Origin: an uncultured delta proteobacterium
GTDB taxonomy: Bacteria; Desulfobacterota; Desulfomonilia; UBA1062
Assembly: GCA_963752595.1 (NCBI GenBank)
Contig: CAVVYZ010000009.1
Location: 300,038 to 364,037 of the forward strand
Direction: 5' to 3'
DNA length: 64,000 nt
Part shown: positions 53,163 to 62,850 of the stretch, one piece after another
Layout: the number at the start of each line of letters is the position of its first letter
Numbering within the stretch: position 1 is the stretch's first letter
Made by a program: the position numbers and the translations under genes
Notes under the pieces: model-generated
Seen by the model: the letters and a program-made list of their open reading frames with translations, nothing else
Database searches by the model: none
What the model was told of the DNA's origin: nothing

Positions 53163-53280
53163 AACCTCTTCCGAAGGCATCAGTCTGCACATTGTCCTAC
53201 CCATAACCAGGGGCGTACCCTGAGCCTAGCCCGTTTGCCGACACATCTCCTTGACCACCAAGGGGATTCTCCCTATAAAG

Positions 53281-54180
53281 ATGATCATGCATGTACCGGA
53301 GCAATTGGTGATCAGGCCTCCGAGCGAGGCGAAAAGCCTGCTCGTGAGGGTGGTGCGCGGATGCAACTGGAACCGCTGCAACTTCTGCGGCATCTACGAC
53401 CTCTTCGGCACGCCGTACTCTTCCCGCGAAAAGGACGAGGTCATCAGGGACATCGATGCCCTCTCCGAGATGTACGGTGATATCTTCAAAACCGCATTCC
53501 TGGGCGATGCCAACCCGCTCGATCTGGAGACAGAGTTTCTCGTGGATATCCTTGAGCATCTCCGTAAAAAATTCCCCGGATTGGGGCGCGTGACTGCATA
53601 CGGCAGGGCTTCGAGCCTTTCGAAAAAGTCTGCAGAAGAGCTGAAAACCATCCGTGAAGCAGGGCTGGACCGGGTGCATGTGGGTCTGGAAAGCGGATCG
53701 AACAGGGTCCTGAAGTTCCAGATGAAAGGGACGAGCCAAAAACAGCTTATCGATGCAGGGGAAAAAACAATGGCCGCGGGCATGGAGCTGAGCTTCTACT
53801 TCCTGCTCGGTCTGGGAGGGCAGGATTTCCGGCAGGAGCACGTTTCGGAATCAATCAAGGTATTCAATGAGGTGAAACCCCATTTCATCCGGGTGAGGAG
53901 GCTGTTCATCCACCCCATGTCGCGGCTCTCGGCAAAGGTGCAATGTGGTGAATTCAGGGAGCAGGCTCCCGAAGGCACCGTCCTGGAACTGCGGGATCTC
54001 ATTGCCGGGCTCGATACGGAAGGTACGACATGCGCCTGCGATCACGCGAACAACTACCTGCAGGTTTTCGGAAAGCTCAATGAAGATAAGGAAAAGATGC
54101 TCGAATTCATCAACACCTTCCTTGCCCTGCCCGAGCATCAGAGGATTGCCCACTATAATTCCGTTCCATCCGTGATCTGA
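53281..54180 (+). CDS. Radical SAM protein, paralog of 41225..42103
   Basis: IRPPSEAKS, CNWNRCNFC, FLGDAN, VGLESG, DHANNYL. Confidence 0.9.
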   Translation: MIMHVPEQLVIRPPSEAKSLLVRVVRGCNWNRCNFCGIYDLFGTPYSSREKDEVIRDIDALSEMYGDIFKTAFLGDANPLDLETEFLVDILEHLRKKFPGLGRVTAYGRASSLSKKSAEELKTIREAGLDRVHVGLESGSNRVLKFQMKGTSQKQLIDAGEKTMAAGMELSFYFLLGLGGQDFRQEHVSESIKVFNEVKPHFIRVRRLFIHPMSRLSAKVQCGEFREQAPEGTVLELRDLIAGLDTEGTTCACDHANNYLQVFGKLNEDKEKMLEFINTFLALPEHQRIAHYNSVPSVI

Positions 54181-54310
54181 TAAGGGAATTCCTGCAGTGT
54201 GCGGTTAAAACCAAGAAGCCCTTTGTTTTTCCCAATGATTCCAATAAAATCTACTTTTTTGCTTGACTTATGAGCCGTTTTGACTTTAAAGCTCCATTTC
54301 TATGACGAGT

Positions 54311-54358
54311 ATGAAAAACATAACCATCAGCACCAGCTTCTTTTTCTTCTTTGTTTAG
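54311..54358 (+). CDS. Phenylalanine-rich attenuator leader peptide MKNITISTSFFFFFV (in-frame upstream ATG at 54302)
   Basis: ATG AAA AAC ATA ACC ATC AGC ACC AGC TTC TTT TTC TTC TTT GTT TAG: five consecutive Phe codons, one codon before the stop. Confidence 0.85.
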   Translation: MKNITISTSFFFFFV

Positions 54359-54451
54359 GTCTACCTGCGTACACGCTTTTTAAGATCTGACCAAAGAGAA
54401 CGAGGAAAAAAGCCGTAGGTAGACCGAGTCGGTCTACCTACGGCTTTTTTT
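54347..54451 (+). promoter_or_regulatory. Transcriptional attenuator (protector, antiterminator, terminator)
   Basis: Terminator GCCGTAGGTAGACC/GGTCTACCTACGGC (54412-54444) + T7; antiterminator GGTCTACCTGCG (54358-54369) is complementary to the terminator 5' arm; protector 54347-54362 pairs with 54383-54398. Confidence 0.88.
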
Positions 54452-54518: not shown

Positions 54519-55730
54519 ATGGTGAGAGGGTTAAAATTTTTGATCAGTGCGGTGGCAGGCATCGCAGTCTTCTGCGGGGCCATGTCGGCATCCGCAGAGA
54601 ACATCAAGGTAGGCGCGGCAATGAACCTGACCGGCCCTGCATCAACCTGGGGGCAGTACCATGCCAAGGGCCAGCAGGACTACTTCAGATACGTCAACGA
54701 GGTAAAAGGCGGCATCAAGGGCAGAAAGATCCAGATGATCACCGTGGATACCGCCTACAAGGCGTCCGAGGCGGTTGCTGCCGTCCGGAAGTTCGCCATG
54801 CAGGACAAGGTGGACATGATCGCCACCTGGAGCGCAGGAGAAGGCATCCAGGCGAAACCGCTGCTCCAGCAGTTCAAGATCCCTGCCATCAACTACTCCA
54901 CGGCCTGGGAGATCCTGCAGCCGCCGGTCGATTACATGTACCTGCCTTTCGGCAACTACAAGCTCGACTGCCAGGCCGTGCTCGAGTACGTCGTTGCCGT
55001 GCACAAGGGCAAAAGTTCACCCAAGGTCGGCCTGCTGACCTACAACAACCCCTACGGCCGCTCAATCCACGAGCCGAGCAGGGAGTATGCGAAAAAGAAG
55101 AATATAGAGATCGTGTCCATCGAGGAGTTCCCTCCTCAGACCGTTGATCTCACCACCGAGCTGCTCCGCCTCAAGCAGAAGGGAGCCCAGTACGTATTCG
55201 TCCAGATGCTGCCCGCAGCCATCATCAGCACGCTCAAAAGCGCTGACCGCATCGGCTACAACCCGCAGTTCATCGGCACCTGGACCTCTACGGACCCGGA
55301 TTTCTTCAAGAACGGCAAGGGCCTCATCAAGGACCGGGTGAAAATGCAGTTCTGCGGCGCGCTTCCTTCGGACAAGACGCCCGGGATCAAGCTGATGGAA
55401 GGTATCTGGAAGCGCTACAAGACCGTTGATTCCTTCGATACCGCCTACTGGGAAGGCATGGTTGTCGGCATGATCATGGAACGGGCATTTGCAAGGGCCC
55501 AGGAGAAGTTCGGAAACATCACGCCCGAAAACATCAACAAGGCCATGGAGACCTTCAGGAACGAGGACTTCGGCGGGCTGGTCCCGAACATCACCTACAC
55601 CAAGAACGACCACGGCGCATCGTTCAAGGGCAGGATCGTCCAGATTCACGAGAACGGGACCTTTACCCCGCTGACCAATTTCTTCACCCCCGGCAAGGAC
55701 AAGATCAGAGCTCAAAGTGAAATAACGTGA
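54519..55730 (+). CDS. ABC transporter substrate-binding protein, LivJ/HAAT family
   Basis: Signal peptide, IKVGAAMNLTGP, YVNEVKGGIKGRKI, DTAYK. Confidence 0.92.
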   Translation: MVRGLKFLISAVAGIAVFCGAMSASAENIKVGAAMNLTGPASTWGQYHAKGQQDYFRYVNEVKGGIKGRKIQMITVDTAYKASEAVAAVRKFAMQDKVDMIATWSAGEGIQAKPLLQQFKIPAINYSTAWEILQPPVDYMYLPFGNYKLDCQAVLEYVVAVHKGKSSPKVGLLTYNNPYGRSIHEPSREYAKKKNIEIVSIEEFPPQTVDLTTELLRLKQKGAQYVFVQMLPAAIISTLKSADRIGYNPQFIGTWTSTDPDFFKNGKGLIKDRVKMQFCGALPSDKTPGIKLMEGIWKRYKTVDSFDTAYWEGMVVGMIMERAFARAQEKFGNITPENINKAMETFRNEDFGGLVPNITYTKNDHGASFKGRIVQIHENGTFTPLTNFFTPGKDKIRAQSEIT

Positions 55731-55760
55731 GAGGCGAATGGGTTTGGCATGAGAATCCGT

Positions 55761-55843
55761 CCTGATACCACCGGGATTCATGCCGGTGGTATCAGGCACA
55801 GCACATGATGGGCGTCACTCCGGCACATGCCGGGAGTGACGCC
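55761..55843 (+). repeat. Two tandem GC-rich hairpins after the substrate-binding protein gene
   Basis: CCTGATACCACCGG/CCGGTGGTATCAGG (55761-55796) and GGCGTCACTCC/GGAGTGACGCC (55811-55843). Confidence 0.7.
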
Positions 55844-55905
55844 GGATAAAAGGACTTATTGTGAGGGCATTTCGCGGACAACCACGAATCTTCTCCGCCG
55901 ACAAG

Positions 55906-56725
55906 ATGGCGCAGAGACGGGCCGAGCTCGAGGTAAGGGGCCTGTCTCTTTCCTTCGGCGGCATACACGCCGTCAGGGATGTGGATCTTTCCGTCCATAC
56001 CGGGAGAGCTCGTGGCCGTCATCGGGCCGAACGGTGCAGGCAAGACGAGCCTCCTGAACTGCATCACCGGGTTCTACAAGGCCACGTCGGGCGATATCGT
56101 TTTCAACGGCCGGAGCATTACCCGCATGCACACCCACAAGCTCACCTCTCTGGGCATCGGCCGGACCTTCCAGAACATCGAGCTCTTCCCGGGCATGACC
56201 GTGCTCCAGAACATGCTGCTCGCCCGCCATACCCGCTCCTCCTACAACTTCGGGCTGGCCTGCCTGTTCTCTCCCTCGGTCAGGCGTGAGGAGGTCCGGC
56301 ACCATGAGATCCTCGAAGAGATCATCGATTTCCTGGAGATGCAGTCCATCCGGAAGGAGCTCGTGGGCTCGCTGCCCTACGGCATGCGCAAGCGGGTGGA
56401 GCTGGGCGGGCTCTGGCATCGGAGCCGAGCCTGCTGGTGCTCGACGAGCCTTTTGCCGGAATGACGCTGGAGGAGAAAGAGGACATGGTGCGCTTCCTCC
56501 TGGAACTGCACGACGGCTGGGGCCAGACCATGATCCTGGTGGAGCATGACATGTCCATCGTCATGAGCATCTCCGAGCGCATCATCGTGCTCAACTTCGG
56601 CGAGAAGCTCGCCGAGGGCCTGCCTTCCGAGATCCAGGACCATCCCGAAGTCATCAAGGCCTACCTCGGGGATACCACGGACCTGGACCCGGACAAAAAG
56701 GAAACGGAAGAGGTCCATGGATGGC
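55906..56725 (+). CDS. ABC ATP-binding protein, LivG-like (frameshifted; 3' end approximate)
   Basis: SFGGIHAV, GPNGAGKTS, RTFQNIELF, LPYGMRKRVEL, LDEPFAGM, VEHDM, VIKAYLG. Confidence 0.88.
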
Positions 56726-58677
56726 CGGTCATTCGCGGAAAGTCAGCGCTGGAACGCCTCGATGCGCTCGAACTCCTGCACCCTTCCCCAGGTGCTCTTG
56801 AGACAGGCCGAAGTTTTCGGGAACAGGCATACCGCCATCCGGGAAAAGGCCTACGGCGTCTGGCAGACCTATACCTGGGAAGACTACCTCCAGTACGTGA
56901 AGTACACCGGCCTCGGGCTCAAGGCCCTGGGCCTCAAGCGCCACGACCACGTGGGCATCATCATGAACAACCACCCCGAGTGGCTGTTCTCACAGCTCGG
57001 GGCACAGGCCTTCGGCGCGGTAACGCTCAACCTCTTCACCTCGGCCGTTGCGAGCGAGCTGGCCTCTGCCCTGAACCGCATCCAGGCGAGCTTTGTCATC
57101 GCCCAGGACCAGGAGCAGGTGGACAAGCTCCTGGAACAGCTCGCCAAGCTGCCCCACGTGAAGGCCATCATCTACGTGGACCCGACGGGCATGAGGGGCT
57201 ATGCGGACAACAAGCTCCTCGTCAGCTATCAAAGACCTGCTGGACCTGGGGAAAAAGCATCGATGCCGAGCACCCGGGGCTGTTCAGCGAAGAGATAGCC
57301 AAGGGAAAGCCGGAAGATACGGCCCACATGATCCTGACCTCCGGCACCACGGGCCTCTCCAAGCTCGCCATGCTCTCGCACCGGAACTACGCGGACATGG
57401 GCAGGAAATGGATCGAGGCCGCCCCGGTGGGCATCGGCACGAACTGGCTTTCCATGACGCCGCCCGCCTGGATCGTGGACCAGATGTGGGCGTTCGGCGT
57501 GGCGCTCCTGGGCGGCATGACCATGAACTTCCCCGAGACCCCCGAGACCGTGACCGCGGATTTCCGCGAGATCGGGCCCGAGCTGCTCATCTCCTCGTCG
57601 CGGTTCTGGGAGGACCTGGCCTCGAAGATCAGGGTCAAGATCGACGATGCGGGGTTCGTCAACCGCGCCATGTTCTGCCTGGCCGAGCGCATCGGGTCGG
57701 CCGTGGTGAACCGGAAGGCGAAGAAAGAGCCCGTTCCGCTTGCCTTGAAGCTCCTCCACGGCCTGGCAGCGCAGCACTGGTGTTCGACCCGCTGCTGGAC
57801 CGCGTGGGATGCTCCCGGTTCACCAGCGCCTACACCGGAGGCCACCCCATCAGCCCGGACGTGATCCGCTTCTTCCGGGCCTGCGGCCTGAACCTCAAGC
57901 AGTGCTACGGCCTCACCGAGACCTGCGGCATCTTCCAGGTGCAGCCCGACGACGAGGTGAAGCCCGAGACCGTGGGCAAGGCTCTGCCCAACACCGTTGG
58001 TCAGGATCTCCAATGACCAGGAGGTCATGGTGCTTGAGCAAGTCTGTCTTTTCCGGGTATTACAACGACTACGAGTCCACGGAAAGCACGTTCGAGAACG
58101 GCTGGTTCCTCACCGGCGACGCCGGGTACTTCGACGACGACGGCCACCTCGTGATCATCGGCCGCAAGCAGGACATCATCCGCGACAAGGAAGGGAACGC
58201 CTTCTCGCCCGGATTTCATCGAGACCAGGCTCAAGTTCTCGCTCTTATGTCAAGGAGGCCGTCATCTTCGGCGAAGGCCGGCCCTACATCACCGCGCTCA
58301 TCAACATCGACCAGGGCAACGTGGGCAACTGGGCGGAAGACGCGCATGATCCCGTACACCACCTACACGGACCTGTCCCAGCGGCCCGAGGTGGAGGGCC
58401 TCATCCTCGCCGAGGTGAAGAAAGGTCAACGAGCAGCTCCCGACTGCCCATGAAGATCCGGAAATTCATCCTGCTCTACAAGCTGCTGGATGCAGACGAC
58501 GAGGAGCTCACCCGGACCGGGAAAGTGAGGAGGCGTTTCGTGTACGGCCTGTATCTCCCCATGATCGAGGCAATGTATTCGGGCTTGAGCGAGCTGCCGG
58601 TCAAGGGCAAGGTACGATACCGGGACGGCCAGGTGGGCATGATCGAAACGATCGCCCGGGTCATCACCGTGAACTGA
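56717..58677 (+). CDS. AMP-binding acyl-CoA synthetase, long-chain-fatty-acid-CoA ligase-like (several frameshifts)
   Basis: AIREKAYGVWQTYTW, TSGTTGLSK, QCYGLTE, WFLTGDAG, ELTRTGKVRR. Confidence 0.88.
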
Positions 58678-58703
58678 TACGGTAAATTTTAGGAGCTTAA
58701 ACT

Positions 58704-59580
58704 ATGGAATTCTTCTTACAGCTGCTTATAAACGGACTGAGCATAGGGCTGCTGTACGGGCTTTCGGCACTGGGCTTTGTCATGATCTTCAAGTCGTCGT
58801 CCGTGCTCAATTTCGCCCACGGCCAGCTGCTCGCCATCGGCGCCTTCTTGTTTCTCGTCCTGGTCTCCTGGTCGAAGGTGCCTATTGCCGTCGCCTTCCT
58901 CATCACCCTGGCGGGAAGCTTCGTGCTGGGGTTCGTGGTGGAGCGGATCTTCCTGCGGCCGCTCATCGGCGAGTCACTGATCTTCGTCATCATGCTCACC
59001 GTGGGGCTGGCCTCCATGTTCAAGGGACTGCTCCTCTTCTTCTTCGGCGGCAATCTCCAGACCTACCCGGACTTCCTGCCGCCAAGCTGGCCATCCAGAT
59101 GGGCAACATCTACATCCCGCCGGTATACGTGGCATCTTCGCTCATGGGAGGGGTCTTCCTCGTGCTCTTCGGGCTTTTCTTCAAGTACTCGCCCCAGGGC
59201 ATCTTCATGCGGTCCGTTGCCGACAATCAGACCGCGGCCCTGTCTCTGGGCGTCCACGTGAAAAAGGTCTTTGCCCTGTCCTGGGCCATCGCGGCCATGG
59301 TGGCGGCATGAGCGGCATCGTGCTGGGCATCATCAACGGCATCAACGTGCACGAGATATCATCCATCGGCCTCAAAGTCTTCCCGGTGGTGATCCTGGGC
59401 GGGCTCGACAGCATCGGCGGTGCCATCATCGGCGGCATCATCATCGGCCTGCTGGAGACCTTCACCAGCGGGTACATTTCACCGTCGCTCCGGGACGTCG
59501 TCCCCTACATCGTCCTGGTCGTGATCCTTCTCATCAAACCCTACGGCCTCTTCGGGCTCGTAGAGATCGAGCGGGTATGA
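58704..59580 (+). CDS. ABC permease, LivH-like (frameshifted)
   Basis: QLLINGL, LGFVMIFKSS, NFAHG, VILGGLDS, KPYGLFG. Confidence 0.88.
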
Positions 59581-59581
59581 G

Positions 59582-60667
59582 ATGGATATGCCGGTGAGGA
59601 AGCTTACATTCCATCCCTGCGGAAACTACAAGGAGCATTACAGCCCGGGAGCTCACCATCTTCGAGACCGACTTCGGAAGAATGTGGGCGTTCATCGGGC
59701 TTATGCTGCTCTTCGGCGTCGTGCCCTTCATCACCTCGCCCTACCTGCTCTACGTCCTCAACATGACCGGCATTGCAGCCATCGCCGCGCTGGGCCTGAA
59801 CATCCTCGTCGGGTTCACGGGCCAGATCTCGCTGGGGCACGGGGCTTTCTTCGGCGTGGGCGCCTATGCAGGGGCCATCCTGGCCACCACGTTGGGCATG
59901 CCCTTCTGGGCTGCCGTGCCTGCGGCCGGGCTCGTCACCGCCTTCGTGGGCATGATCTTCGGCATCCCCTCGGGCAGACTCAAGGGCCTCTACCTCACCA
60001 TCGCCACCCTGGCGGGCCAGTTCATCATCGAGTACATCCTGGTGCACTGGGACAGCCTCACCAAGGGGACCATGGGCATCATGCTGCCCAGAGCAAGCCT
60101 GTTCGGGTTCGAGATCAACTCGGACCTCCGATTCTTCTACGTGATCTTCGTCTGCCTCACCTGTGTTACCCTCGTGGCGTCGAACCTTATGCGCACCCGC
60201 TACGGCAGGGCCTTCATCGCCATCCGGGACAACGACCGGGCGGCCGAGGGCATGGGCATCCCCATCTTCTTCTACAAGCTGCTCTCCTTTGCCATCAGCT
60301 CCTTCTATGCAGGGTTCGCCGGGGCGCTCTGGGCATACTACATGCGGAGCATCTCCACCGAGCCCTTCACGCTTGGGCCTGTCCGTGGAATACATCGCCA
60401 TGGTCATCATCGGCGGCCTGGGCAGCATCCCGGGCTCGATCTTCGGTGCGGTCTTCATCACCGGCCTCAACGAGGTCTCTGCGCTTCGCCACGGATGCCA
60501 TGATGAACTTGGCGGCCTTGAGCGGGTTCGGGCTCAATATGGCATCTCTGCGCGAGTTTGCCTTCGGCCTGGCCATCGTCCTGTTCATCCTCTTCGAGCC
60601 CAAGGGGCTTGCCGAGCTGTGGCGGATCGTCCGGTCCACCTTCAGGCTCTGGCCGTTCTCCTACTGA
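59582..60667 (+). CDS. ABC permease, LivM-like (frameshifted)
   Basis: GLNILVGFTGQISLGH, RLKGLYLTIATLA, GRAFIAIRDND, EPKGLAELW. Confidence 0.88.
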   Translation: MDMPVRKLTFHPCGNYKEHYSPGAHHLRDRLRKNVGVHRAYAALRRRALHHLALPALRPQHDRHCSHRRAGPEHPRRVHGPDLAGARGFLRRGRLCRGHPGHHVGHALLGCRACGRARHRLRGHDLRHPLGQTQGPLPHHRHPGGPVHHRVHPGALGQPHQGDHGHHAAQSKPVRVRDQLGPPILLRDLRLPHLCYPRGVEPYAHPLRQGLHRHPGQRPGGRGHGHPHLLLQAALLCHQLLLCRVRRGALGILHAEHLHRALHAWACPWNTSPWSSSAAWAASRARSSVRSSSPASTRSLRFATDAMMNLAALSGFGLNMASLREFAFGLAIVLFILFEPKGLAELWRIVRSTFRLWPFSY

Positions 60668-60678
60668 AGGGAAAAGTC

Positions 60679-61491
60679 ATGGAAAACGTGAAGACCGAAA
60701 TCCTGCTCCAGCTCAACAACATCAGCGTGGTCTACTCCGACGTCATCCAGGTGCTCAAAGGGGTCTCCCTCAAGGTGCCCAGGGGACGGATCGTCTCGCT
60801 TCCTGGGCAGCAACGGCGCGGGCAAGACCACGACCCTGAAGGCCATCTCCGGGCCTGCTGAAGCCCGAGAACGGCAAGGTGACGGACGGCGGGATCATCT
60901 ACAACGACCATCACATCCAGAACCTGTCCCCGGAAGAGATCACGCGGCTGGGCATCATCCAGGTGCTGGAAGGCAGGCAGCCCTTCAAGTATCTCACCAT
61001 CGAGGAGAACCTGAAGGTCGGCACCGCGACGCGCTGGACAAAGCCCTACAAGAAAGACCTGGAGCTCGTGTACCACTACTTCCCCGCCCTCACGAAGCGC
61101 AGGAAGACCATGGCCGGCTACTGCAGCGGCGGCGAGCTGCAGATGGTGGTCATGGGCAGGGCGCTCATGGCCCACCCCAAGCTGCTCCTGCTGGACGAGC
61201 CGTCCCTGGGCCTGGCGCCCCTGGTGGTAAGGAGATCTTCCGGATCATCAGGCGGATCAACGAGGAGCAGGGCACCACCATCATCCTCGTGGAGCAGAAC
61301 GCCAACATGGCGCTGCAGATCGCCCACTTACGGCTATGTCATGGAGAACGGCAAGATCGTGATGGAGGGCGAGGCAGAGGCCTGAAGGAGAACCCGGACG
61401 TGAAGGAGTTCTACCTGGGAGTCGGCGCTGGCGGCGCACCCGGTCGTACCGGGACGTGAAATCCTACAAGCGGCGGAAGAGATGGCTGTAA
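60679..61491 (+). CDS. ABC ATP-binding protein, LivF-like (frameshifted)
   Basis: VYSDVIQVLKGVS, Walker A NGAGKTT in a shifted frame, SGGELQM, LLDEPSLGLAP, C-terminal YKRRKRWL*. Confidence 0.88.
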
Positions 61492-61590
61492 GCTGAACGT
61501 ATAACTGCCTTTTCTTCAGCGTGAAGGTAACTTGATAGAATCTCCCGCCATTTTGCCGGGCGGCGAAGGCATTAAAAAAGGGGGCGATCT

Positions 61591-62850
61591 ATGAGTACAT
61601 ATCTCGACGATCTCGAAACCATGACCCAGCCGGAGCGTGAGAGCATATCAGGATAACCGGCTCGCTCGAAATGGTGCGGCTCGGCTATGAGCGCTCCGCC
61701 AGGCTCAGGGCAATGTTTGACGATCGCGGGCTTAAACCCTCCGATATACGGACCGTAAAGGACCTCGCCAAGCTCCCGGTCATCAACCGGGAACAGACTC
61801 GTGGAGATTGAGGCCGAAGAGCCGCCCTTCGGCGGACTGGCCGACCCGAAGCCCCATCGAGCGCATCTTCACCTCTCCCGGCCCGGTGTACGAGCCGCAC
61901 CTCGGCTCCGACGATCCGCTCTGGGCAAGGGCATACAAGGCCGCAGGGTTCGGCAAAGGCGATATCGTGCTGAACGCCTTCTCCTATCACATGGTGGCTG
62001 CAGGGCTCACCTTCCACGGCGGGCTGAACCAGGTGGGCGCCACGGTGGTGCCCTCCGGCGCCTCGGCCACCCAGCAGCAGGTCCAGCTCATAAAGGATCT
62101 GAGCGTCACCGGCTATACCGGCACCCCGAGCTTCCTCATGGCCATCATCGAAAAGGCGCGGGAGATGGGCTTCGACTTTGCAAAGGACTTCCGGGTCGAG
62201 TCGCGCGTGCTTTGCGGCAGAACCGCTCCTGCCTTCGCTTGCGGCAGCGCTTCGAGACCGAGTTCGGCATCGACACCTACCAGATGTACGGCGCCACCGA
62301 GGTGGGGGACGTGGCCTACGAGTGCCCGGAAAAGAAGGGCTGGCACATCTGCGAAGAAATCATCGTGGAGATCGTGGACCCGGCCACCGGGAGCAGCGTG
62401 AAGCCCGGCGAGCTGGGCGAGGTGGTGGTAACCAGGCTGAACCACATCTTCTTCCTCTTCCGCTTCGGCACCGGCGACCTTTCCAGCCTCATTGAGGAGC
62501 CCTGCTCCTGCGGCAGGACCTCGTACAGGCTCTCCGGGATCGCAGGCCGGGTGGGGGATGCGGTGAAGGTCCGGGGCATGTTCGTGGCGCCGAGCCAGGT
62601 GAAGAAGGTAACCGAGAGTTTCCCCGGCATAGCTGTCCAGCTCGTCATCACCCGGTCGGGCCACAAGGACATACTGACGGCCAGGGTAGATACGAAAGGA
62701 TCCGGCATCGACACTGCCGGCCTTACGTCCCGCTTCGAGAAGATTTTCCAGGAAATCTGTACCGTGAGGATAGACCAGGTGGATTTCGTCAGTCCCGGCA
62801 GCATTCCGGATGGCGCCAAGCTGCTCGTTGACGAGAGGGAGTGGAAATAA
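61591..62850 (+). CDS. Phenylacetate--CoA ligase (PaaK) family protein (frameshifted)
   Basis: DLAKLPV, FTSPGPVYEP, NAFSYH, YTGTPSFL, QMYGATEVG, IRF-type RFGTGDLS, KVRGMFV. Confidence 0.85.

Follow-up and report, generated by a model that had tools for sequence, protein, structure and literature searches.

A phenylalanine-attenuated importer–ligase operon in Desulfobacterota: a candidate aryl-acid salvage route to phenylalanine

We examined a 64,000-nucleotide stretch of the genome of an uncultured delta proteobacterium of the Desulfobacterota (GenBank assembly GCA_963752595.1, contig CAVVYZ010000009.1, positions 300,038 to 364,037; hereafter the window), in which a seven-gene Liv-type ABC importer and ligase operon stands behind a phenylalanine (Phe) leader. 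All seven genes lie on the + strand between 54519 and 62850, in the order solute-binding protein (SBP), livG, FACL, livH, livM, livF and a PaaK-like gene. Open reading frame (ORF) listing and Pfam/NCBIfam scans bore out this order and orientation as given in the original prediction, and corrected its assignment of the last gene from PaaK family member to PaaK-like. Specifically, the operon encodes a HAAT/Liv-type SBP of 403 aa (54519..55730; PF13458, E = 1.6e-51), a LivG-type ATPase (55861..56720, ends approximate), a long-chain-type AMP-forming acyl-CoA ligase of about 650 aa (FACL; 56717..58677), LivH-type and LivM-type permeases (58704..59580 and 59582..60667), a LivF-type ATPase (60679..61491) and a PaaK-like protein with a non-canonical P-loop that is an optional operon member (hereafter PaaK2; 61591..62850). 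With one SBP, two permeases and two ATPases, the HAAT set is complete. The window had been described as free of ring-degradation genes; this holds for the 44 chosen ORFs scanned between 1 and 46.5 kb (86 were listed, the remainder mostly overlapping frames) and for 46.5–53 kb, which was read by eye only.

Only the SBP gene occupies a single open frame. Compared to the closest relative (genome G004, 85% DNA identity), 36 indels of 1–2 nt each are spread over the other six genes: 2 in livG, 14 in FACL, 2 in livH, 3 in livM, 6 in livF and 9 in PaaK2. These indels in six of seven genes, together with flanking genes over 46–55.7 kb that are whole ORFs, could indicate that the operon of the source genome (G000; assembly 84% complete, 6.8% contaminated) is a decaying pseudogene cluster. 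However, no in-frame stop has newly arisen in the six genes relative to G004, synonymous changes outnumber non-synonymous ones in a purifying pattern that matches the intact neighboring radical SAM and SBP genes, housekeeping genes are likewise split in this assembly (argH, argG, argF, gdh, pgk, clpB and a tRNA-synthetase frame), and the operon is intact in relatives. We thus read the indels as assembly errors, which seem likelier than pseudogenisation, and regard a decaying cluster as highly improbable. Given these assumed errors, tests of protein-family membership were run on the relatives' intact proteins.

The region upstream of the SBP gene has the layout of a leader-peptide attenuator on the + strand. 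A putative sigma70-type promoter (54263..54292; TTGACT, 18 nt, TAAAGC), recognized from sequence and with a TTGAC hexamer at the equivalent place in family orthologs, precedes an 18-codon leader ORF (54302..54358) that ends in five consecutive Phe codons (54338–54352), Val and a stop. An antiterminator of 11–12 bp (54358..54425, arms 54358–54368 and 54415–54425; −27.0 kcal/mol) begins at the leader stop codon and has its 3′ arm in common with an intrinsic terminator hairpin followed by a U-tract (54405..54451; −36.6 kcal/mol). A simple consensus scan called neither the promoter nor the terminator. We modeled ribosome stalling by folding with 12–15 nt hidden behind the ribosome, the 12-nt figure being taken from PMC4833913. 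In this masked folding, the pair probability of the antiterminator was 0.91–1.0 with the ribosome at Phe 1–3, 0.6–0.9 at Phe 4, 0–0.6 at Phe 5 and 0 at the stop codon. The ribosome-free fragment also folds the antiterminator, so that basal termination in the folding model depends on translation.

This leader is conserved well beyond the window. A Phe-run leader precedes the operon in 17/17 family orthologs, G000 included, and in 79 of the 80 nearest orthologous loci (72 by script and 7 by eye, with 1 truncated), the two sets being overlapping and kin. The best 11-codon windows of these leaders, which were selected for Phe, hold 429 Phe, 12 Tyr and 1 Trp codons. Across 12 aligned leaders, the terminator is 98% paired, with 3 pairs altered on both sides, and the antiterminator is paired in 100% of cells, with one-sided changes only. 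A tandem-codon ORF, a terminator before the first gene and a mutually exclusive, ribosome-gated antiterminator are thus all found in sequence and folding, on which grounds we take the conserved Phe attenuator of this importer–ligase operon to be real. The leaders of Syntrophales-type loci (e.g., L127, L141 and L157) pass through the antiterminator arm with an FF.FF..VC motif, some starting with GTG, and such loci also show two terminator-like hairpins in tandem. Separately, a radical SAM gene (window 53251–54180) lies directly upstream of the leader and keeps this position in many family orthologs.

The original prediction held that the operon imports phenylacetate or a related aryl acid and traps it as a CoA ester, from which Phe would be rebuilt through IorAB, the indolepyruvate/phenylpyruvate:ferredoxin oxidoreductase (IOR). 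Of 24 family relatives, 23 have a full-length IorA, and all 43 further carriers of the operon gave IorA matches (37 above cut-off). Among 28 family genomes examined, 25 have a dedicated Tyr/Phe leader and terminator at the iorA-iorB-paaK1-ACT operon (of the other three, one is truncated, one doubtful and one without); these leaders (loci L074–L089, L062–L073 and L180–L186) end near CP-stop and contain 62 Phe and 69 Tyr codons over the 22 tallied. No leader was seen at the ior loci of a sister family (4/4). The ligase of this operon, PaaK1, has an intact P-loop and scores 645.8 bits against a cut-off of 646.3. Two DAHP-synthase-like genes of G000, named by eye from their translations (− strand; G000:C23 from 22915 and G000:C28 from 12148), also stand behind a Tyr/Phe-rich leader (one with Trp) and a terminator; given the 70% DNA identity between these loci, one may be contamination. 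Leaders shared by ior and DAHP-synthase genes suggest that IOR and PaaK1 are under the kind of control seen for biosynthetic genes.

Transport genes recur around these ior operons. In the family, TRAP transporter genes are frequently the next part of the operon, and their binding protein has its best PDB matches in 4N6D, 4PGN/4PGP and 4NAP, structures which we take to carry aromatic ligands. In genome G018, the ior leader heads iorAB-paaK-ACT, a Liv importer unlike the present one and a further ligase, and in G265 a leaderless ortholog of the ABC–FACL operon is followed, in the same orientation, by TRAP genes, a 3-hydroxyacyl-CoA dehydrogenase, iorA, iorB and paaK. None of 13 carriers yielded the benzoyl-CoA ring hydrolase (TIGR03200), with incomplete genomes and a positive control of 2/5, and TIGR03189 matches were far below cut-off in G000. 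The lack of a ring-cleavage hydrolase in carriers would leave an aryl-CoA without a known catabolic exit. Candidates for the final transamination are 7 class I/II aminotransferase matches in G000, one within a pheA-tyrA-aroA run.

Folding predicts that stalling of the ribosome at the Phe codons frees the antiterminator and allows read-through, and that a ribosome reaching the leader stop blocks the antiterminator and lets the terminator form. Under Phe shortage, the importer would then bring in phenylacetate or another closely related, unsubstituted aryl acid, the acid would be committed as a CoA ester by FACL and/or the separate PaaK1 rather than by PaaK2, IorAB running reductively would carboxylate the acyl-CoA to phenylpyruvate, and transamination would yield Phe, supplementing rather than replacing pheA. 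A Phe-starvation-induced importer of a phenylacetate-type acid for rebuilding Phe is the best-supported function of the operon, and we consider it reasonably probable. Taken more broadly, with longer phenylalkanoates included, aryl-acid salvage to Phe would be likely.

A number of observations, on the wider pathway, the ligases, the SBP and the leaderless loci, weigh against phenylacetate salvage or limit it. First, the IOR that G000 was expected to encode is not in its assembly: orthologs of IorA, IorB and PaaK1 were not found in G000 or in G004, and HMM and tblastn searches for IorA in G000 gave weak Vor/Kor-type matches only. We do not take this as proof that IorA was lost, since both G000 and G004 are also without the essential ileS gene, whose place in relatives is downstream of the ior operon. 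An assembly gap, in which the ior–ileS region was probably lost, therefore likely explains the absence without proving presence. Second, IorA is common in non-carriers too, which makes its co-occurrence with the operon a weak argument by itself. Third, A. aromaticum uses IorAB catabolically, according to PMC9765128, and the direction of the reaction must hence be judged from regulation. Fourth, Syntrophales-type carriers show no leader at iorA (23/23 loci) or at paaK (30/30 loci); Phe control is thus confined to the importer in these carriers, and this fits an uptake-limited salvage and also a direct import of Phe. Fifth, a pheA-type prephenate dehydratase is present in G000 and in 51 of 59 carriers, so that salvage would be a cheaper supplement to the pheA route. 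As a separate observation, G000:C9:234091-241711 brings together Vor/Kor-type oxidoreductase genes, an ACT-like gene, pgk and a canonical PaaK within 8 kb; this Vor/Kor-like cluster (from G000:C9:234091) lies 4 kb from the canonical PaaK and is not tied to the operon, and neither this PaaK nor pheA was seen to have a leader.

The ligases further constrain the reading. The adenylation motifs of FACL are intact in 90 orthologs, and the gene sits in the operon at every locus with a long enough contig. FACL resembles long-chain ligases rather than aryl-acetate ligases, and a search of the PDB retrieved distant ligases only, with no substrate clue. This long-chain type, along with a fatty-acid SBP as the second-best fold match of the binding protein, would suit an importer and FACL taking longer phenylalkanoates (e.g., 4-phenylbutyrate) for beta-oxidation to phenylacetyl-CoA, the substrate of IOR, as would the 3-hydroxyacyl-CoA dehydrogenase between importer and iorAB in G265. 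Such a route would still be Phe salvage, but no beta-oxidation gene appears among the genes listed just downstream of the operon in the Phe-led loci read, and we judge it quite unlikely. For PaaK2, the TIGR02155 score of an intact ortholog is 202 bits (cut-off 646.3), and the P-loop consensus is TSPGP in 47 orthologs vs SSGTTG in PaaK1, the canonical PaaK adenylation P-loop being S(S/T)GTTG. PaaK2 follows livF in 37 of 56 loci; in the other 19 it is lacking within 2.5 kb of livF, and one of these has it further on. Given the P-loop loss, the score below cut-off and the optional presence, the constant unit is the importer plus FACL, and the paaK label should not carry the argument; a role of the last gene as a genuine PaaK trapping the acid is not supported. 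Candidate phenylacetate ligases comprise FACL, PaaK2, PaaK1 and a further PaaK at G000:C9:240449.

The SBP does not name its ligand directly. Its best PDB match, by sequence and by fold, is 3LKB, and in the comparison to LIV-I, NF011933 gave 57.6 against 477 bits. The top match of the predicted fold (pLDDT 77.5) is a Thermus SBP with bound valine, and the second a fatty-acid SBP; third-ranked matches, with similar scores, include aryl-acid and amino-acid binders, and matches in a protein atlas are unnamed SBP clusters only. Valine in the crystal of the best solved relative, and a fatty-acid binder as the second-best, count against an aryl acid. In a rival explanation, the transporter imports Phe itself or phenylpyruvate/phenyllactate without any CoA step, with the ligases carried along by descent or acting as accessory subunits. 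This would agree with the valine-bound best structural relative, with the annotation of E. coli LIV-I as a branched-chain amino acid/phenylalanine transporter, with the alignment of SBP Trp44 to LivK Trp18, with the degenerate and optional PaaK2, and with the importer being the only Phe-attenuated unit in Syntrophales. On the other hand, residues S79, T102, Y202 and E226 of LivJ/K, which we take to be head-group contacts, align to A106, T128, L231 and W255, i.e., 1 of 4 is kept in a low-confidence alignment at 21% identity, and the position of LivK E226 is an invariant Trp in the orthologs; three replaced residues are a weak objection, as 3LKB departs from them too. The constancy of FACL, with its intact motifs, and the acyl-CoA enzymes that surround leaderless orthologs also speak against import of Phe, and the latter make it more probable that the subfamily handles a carboxylic acid than an amino acid. 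Overall, we consider import of Phe or its keto- and hydroxy-acids unlikely, and phenylacetate-type salvage to be the better account.

Next, we evaluated the cluster type outside the leader-bearing clade. Orthologs occur in 48 of 401 genomes of a phylum sample, and 25 of the 30 loci read lack a Phe leader directly before the SBP. Four of these (L250, L252, L267 and L270) start with PaaK2, and the leader scan did not extend further upstream there. An SBP tree, from a fast search that did not run to completion and with a root that is not reliable, places 26 leaderless rows in one group (SH-aLRT 97); as the leader-bearing rows L157 and L264 were mislabelled by a stricter rule, the tree was used for this grouping only. 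The neighbors of leaderless orthologs are acyl-CoA enzymes, i.e., mutase plus MeaB, reductase/dehydratase-like sets, electron-transfer flavoprotein (ETF) and, once, TRAP-iorAB-paaK. Individual loci illustrate this range. Leaderless or distant clusters lie beside a B12 acyl-CoA mutase and MeaB in L056, L285 and L311, with a CaiB transferase in L285, and in L275 and L277 (family f10) a leaderless ortholog is followed by another acyl-CoA ligase. L275 also has a four-gene set resembling benzoyl-CoA reductase or 2-hydroxyacyl-CoA dehydratase, below all specific cut-offs. In L276 (G410), a TrpB2-type enzyme (above cut-off) and a probable thioesterase follow the ortholog, hinting at indole or aryl use.

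A copy of the same seven gene families lies beside an acyl-CoA mutase and MeaB on the plasmid of an aerobic alphaproteobacterium, Roseovarius (NZ_CP045412.1). Together with the leaderless Desulfobacterota orthologs adjoining mutase, reductase/dehydratase-like or ETF genes, this would point to import of a non-aromatic fatty or branched acid, or to a catabolic role, the Phe run acting as a general translation-stress sensor. Such a function seems very unlikely for the leader-bearing operons, as their leaders are Phe-specific across two lineages, related leaders within the family precede aroF-like and ior genes, and carriers have no ring-cleavage hydrolase. Because of these other acyl-CoA contexts, some catabolic-looking, we do not extend Phe salvage to the whole cluster type, as had been proposed.

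It had also been suggested that paralogous clusters might carry leaders naming their substrates. This stands for Tyr, with Tyr-rich leaders at 2 of 23 paralog loci (L305:2974 in G012 and L310:7723 in G022), and not for Trp or Leu/Ile/Val, for which no rich leader was found in the same scan. Both Tyr-rich leaders precede an SBP-livH-livM-livF-livG-paaK cluster without FACL, in genomes without an ortholog of the window's SBP, and this FACL-free cluster is possibly a hydroxyphenylacetate counterpart. The paralog scan saw no leader at FACL-type paralogs, the C15 cluster of G000 included.

Taken together, aryl-acid salvage in the leader-bearing clade has independent support from comparison, i.e., from co-regulated iorAB-paaK in relatives, the lack of a ring-cleavage hydrolase, an SBP site of non-amino-acid type and the iorAB-joined locus. 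PaaK trapping, salvage by the cluster type as a whole and an IOR in the G000 assembly, where a gap is probable, are not supported. More tentatively, we can envision an attenuator-controlled aromatic salvage regulon in syntrophic and sediment Desulfobacterota, in which a Phe-only ABC importer and ligase would serve phenylacetate, a Tyr/Phe-controlled TRAP or second Liv importer with PaaK-ACT-IorAB would serve hydroxylated aryl acids, and aromatic amino acids would be rebuilt from the fermentation waste of other microbes via CO2 fixation. PaaK2 might then be a non-catalytic aryl-CoA- or ligand-binding partner, and leader codons might name the substrates of an orphan transporter family; this scheme as a whole is possible, and we do not count it as probable. 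If salvage is correct, it would add an importer and a mode of control to the anaerobic route from aryl acids to Phe in energy-starved syntrophs, turn genes labeled “branched-chain amino acid transport” or “phenylacetate degradation” into biosynthetic salvage genes, and change how aromatic degradation and cross-feeding are scored in metagenomes. The analysis also yields a short list of candidate ligands for an orphan SBP/ligase subfamily.

The aryl-acid route has reportedly been studied in the rumen as well, and two T-box surveys may, reportedly, already link Phe/Tyr T-boxes to ior/paaK in Firmicutes. In Methanococcus maripaludis, aryl acids feed a second pathway to aromatic amino acids via IOR (Porat 2004, as cited in PMC4162585), and PMC13285125 describes an IOR-linked AMP-forming ligase of Bacteroides as an arylacetate-CoA ligase and suggests a biosynthetic role. 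We found no description of the leader–importer–IOR set in the literature searched, subscription papers being mostly outside its coverage, and the accessible portions of PMC9007349, PMC3766115 and PMC4641369 do not describe the operon. The Desulfobacterota system resembles the M. maripaludis and Bacteroides routes in having, in relatives, IorAB beside an AMP-forming PaaK ligase, in its anaerobic host and in salvage standing beside a de novo route. It differs in its separate Liv-type ABC importer, embedded long-chain-type ligase, degenerate PaaK-like gene and attenuation, and in an IOR that is unassembled in G000.

Similar partial matches are seen for the individual components. E. coli LIV-I (LivJ/LivK-LivHMGF) has the same five-component HAAT architecture, whereas the SBP here is about 21% identical, has lost most head-group residues and is accompanied by two embedded ligase genes. 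The nearest solved relatives of PaaK2 are PaaK proteins (TIGR02155; PDB 4R1L, 2Y4O and 2Y27; E about 1e-46), with which it shares the motifs YG.TE, TGD and GR.D and from which it differs in score (202 vs 646.3) and P-loop. The FACL-livG-livH-livM-SBP-livF-PaaK-like cluster widespread in aerobic Proteobacteria has the same seven families and the same TSPGP/QSPGP PaaK-like protein; unlike the operon here, the Roseovarius-type cluster has an SBP only 25% identical, another gene order and an adjoining mutase.

Finally, the leader itself compares most closely to the enterobacterial attenuators of the Phe_leader type, which we take to be those of pheL-pheA and pheM-pheST, with a short Phe-run leader, an antiterminator arm at the stop codon and a competing terminator. 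Unlike these, it scores 34.6 bits (E = 3.6e-4) against Rfam Phe_leader RF01859, short of the gathering threshold of 55, and controls an importer/ligase operon in Desulfobacterota rather than pheA or pheS; it works like pheL but outside that family. Attenuators of this type were found mainly in gamma-proteobacteria and on biosynthetic enzymes in one survey (PMC3766115). Attenuation is a textbook type of switch and the aryl-acid route is already known, so their combination on an importer–ligase operon is a variant of known systems.

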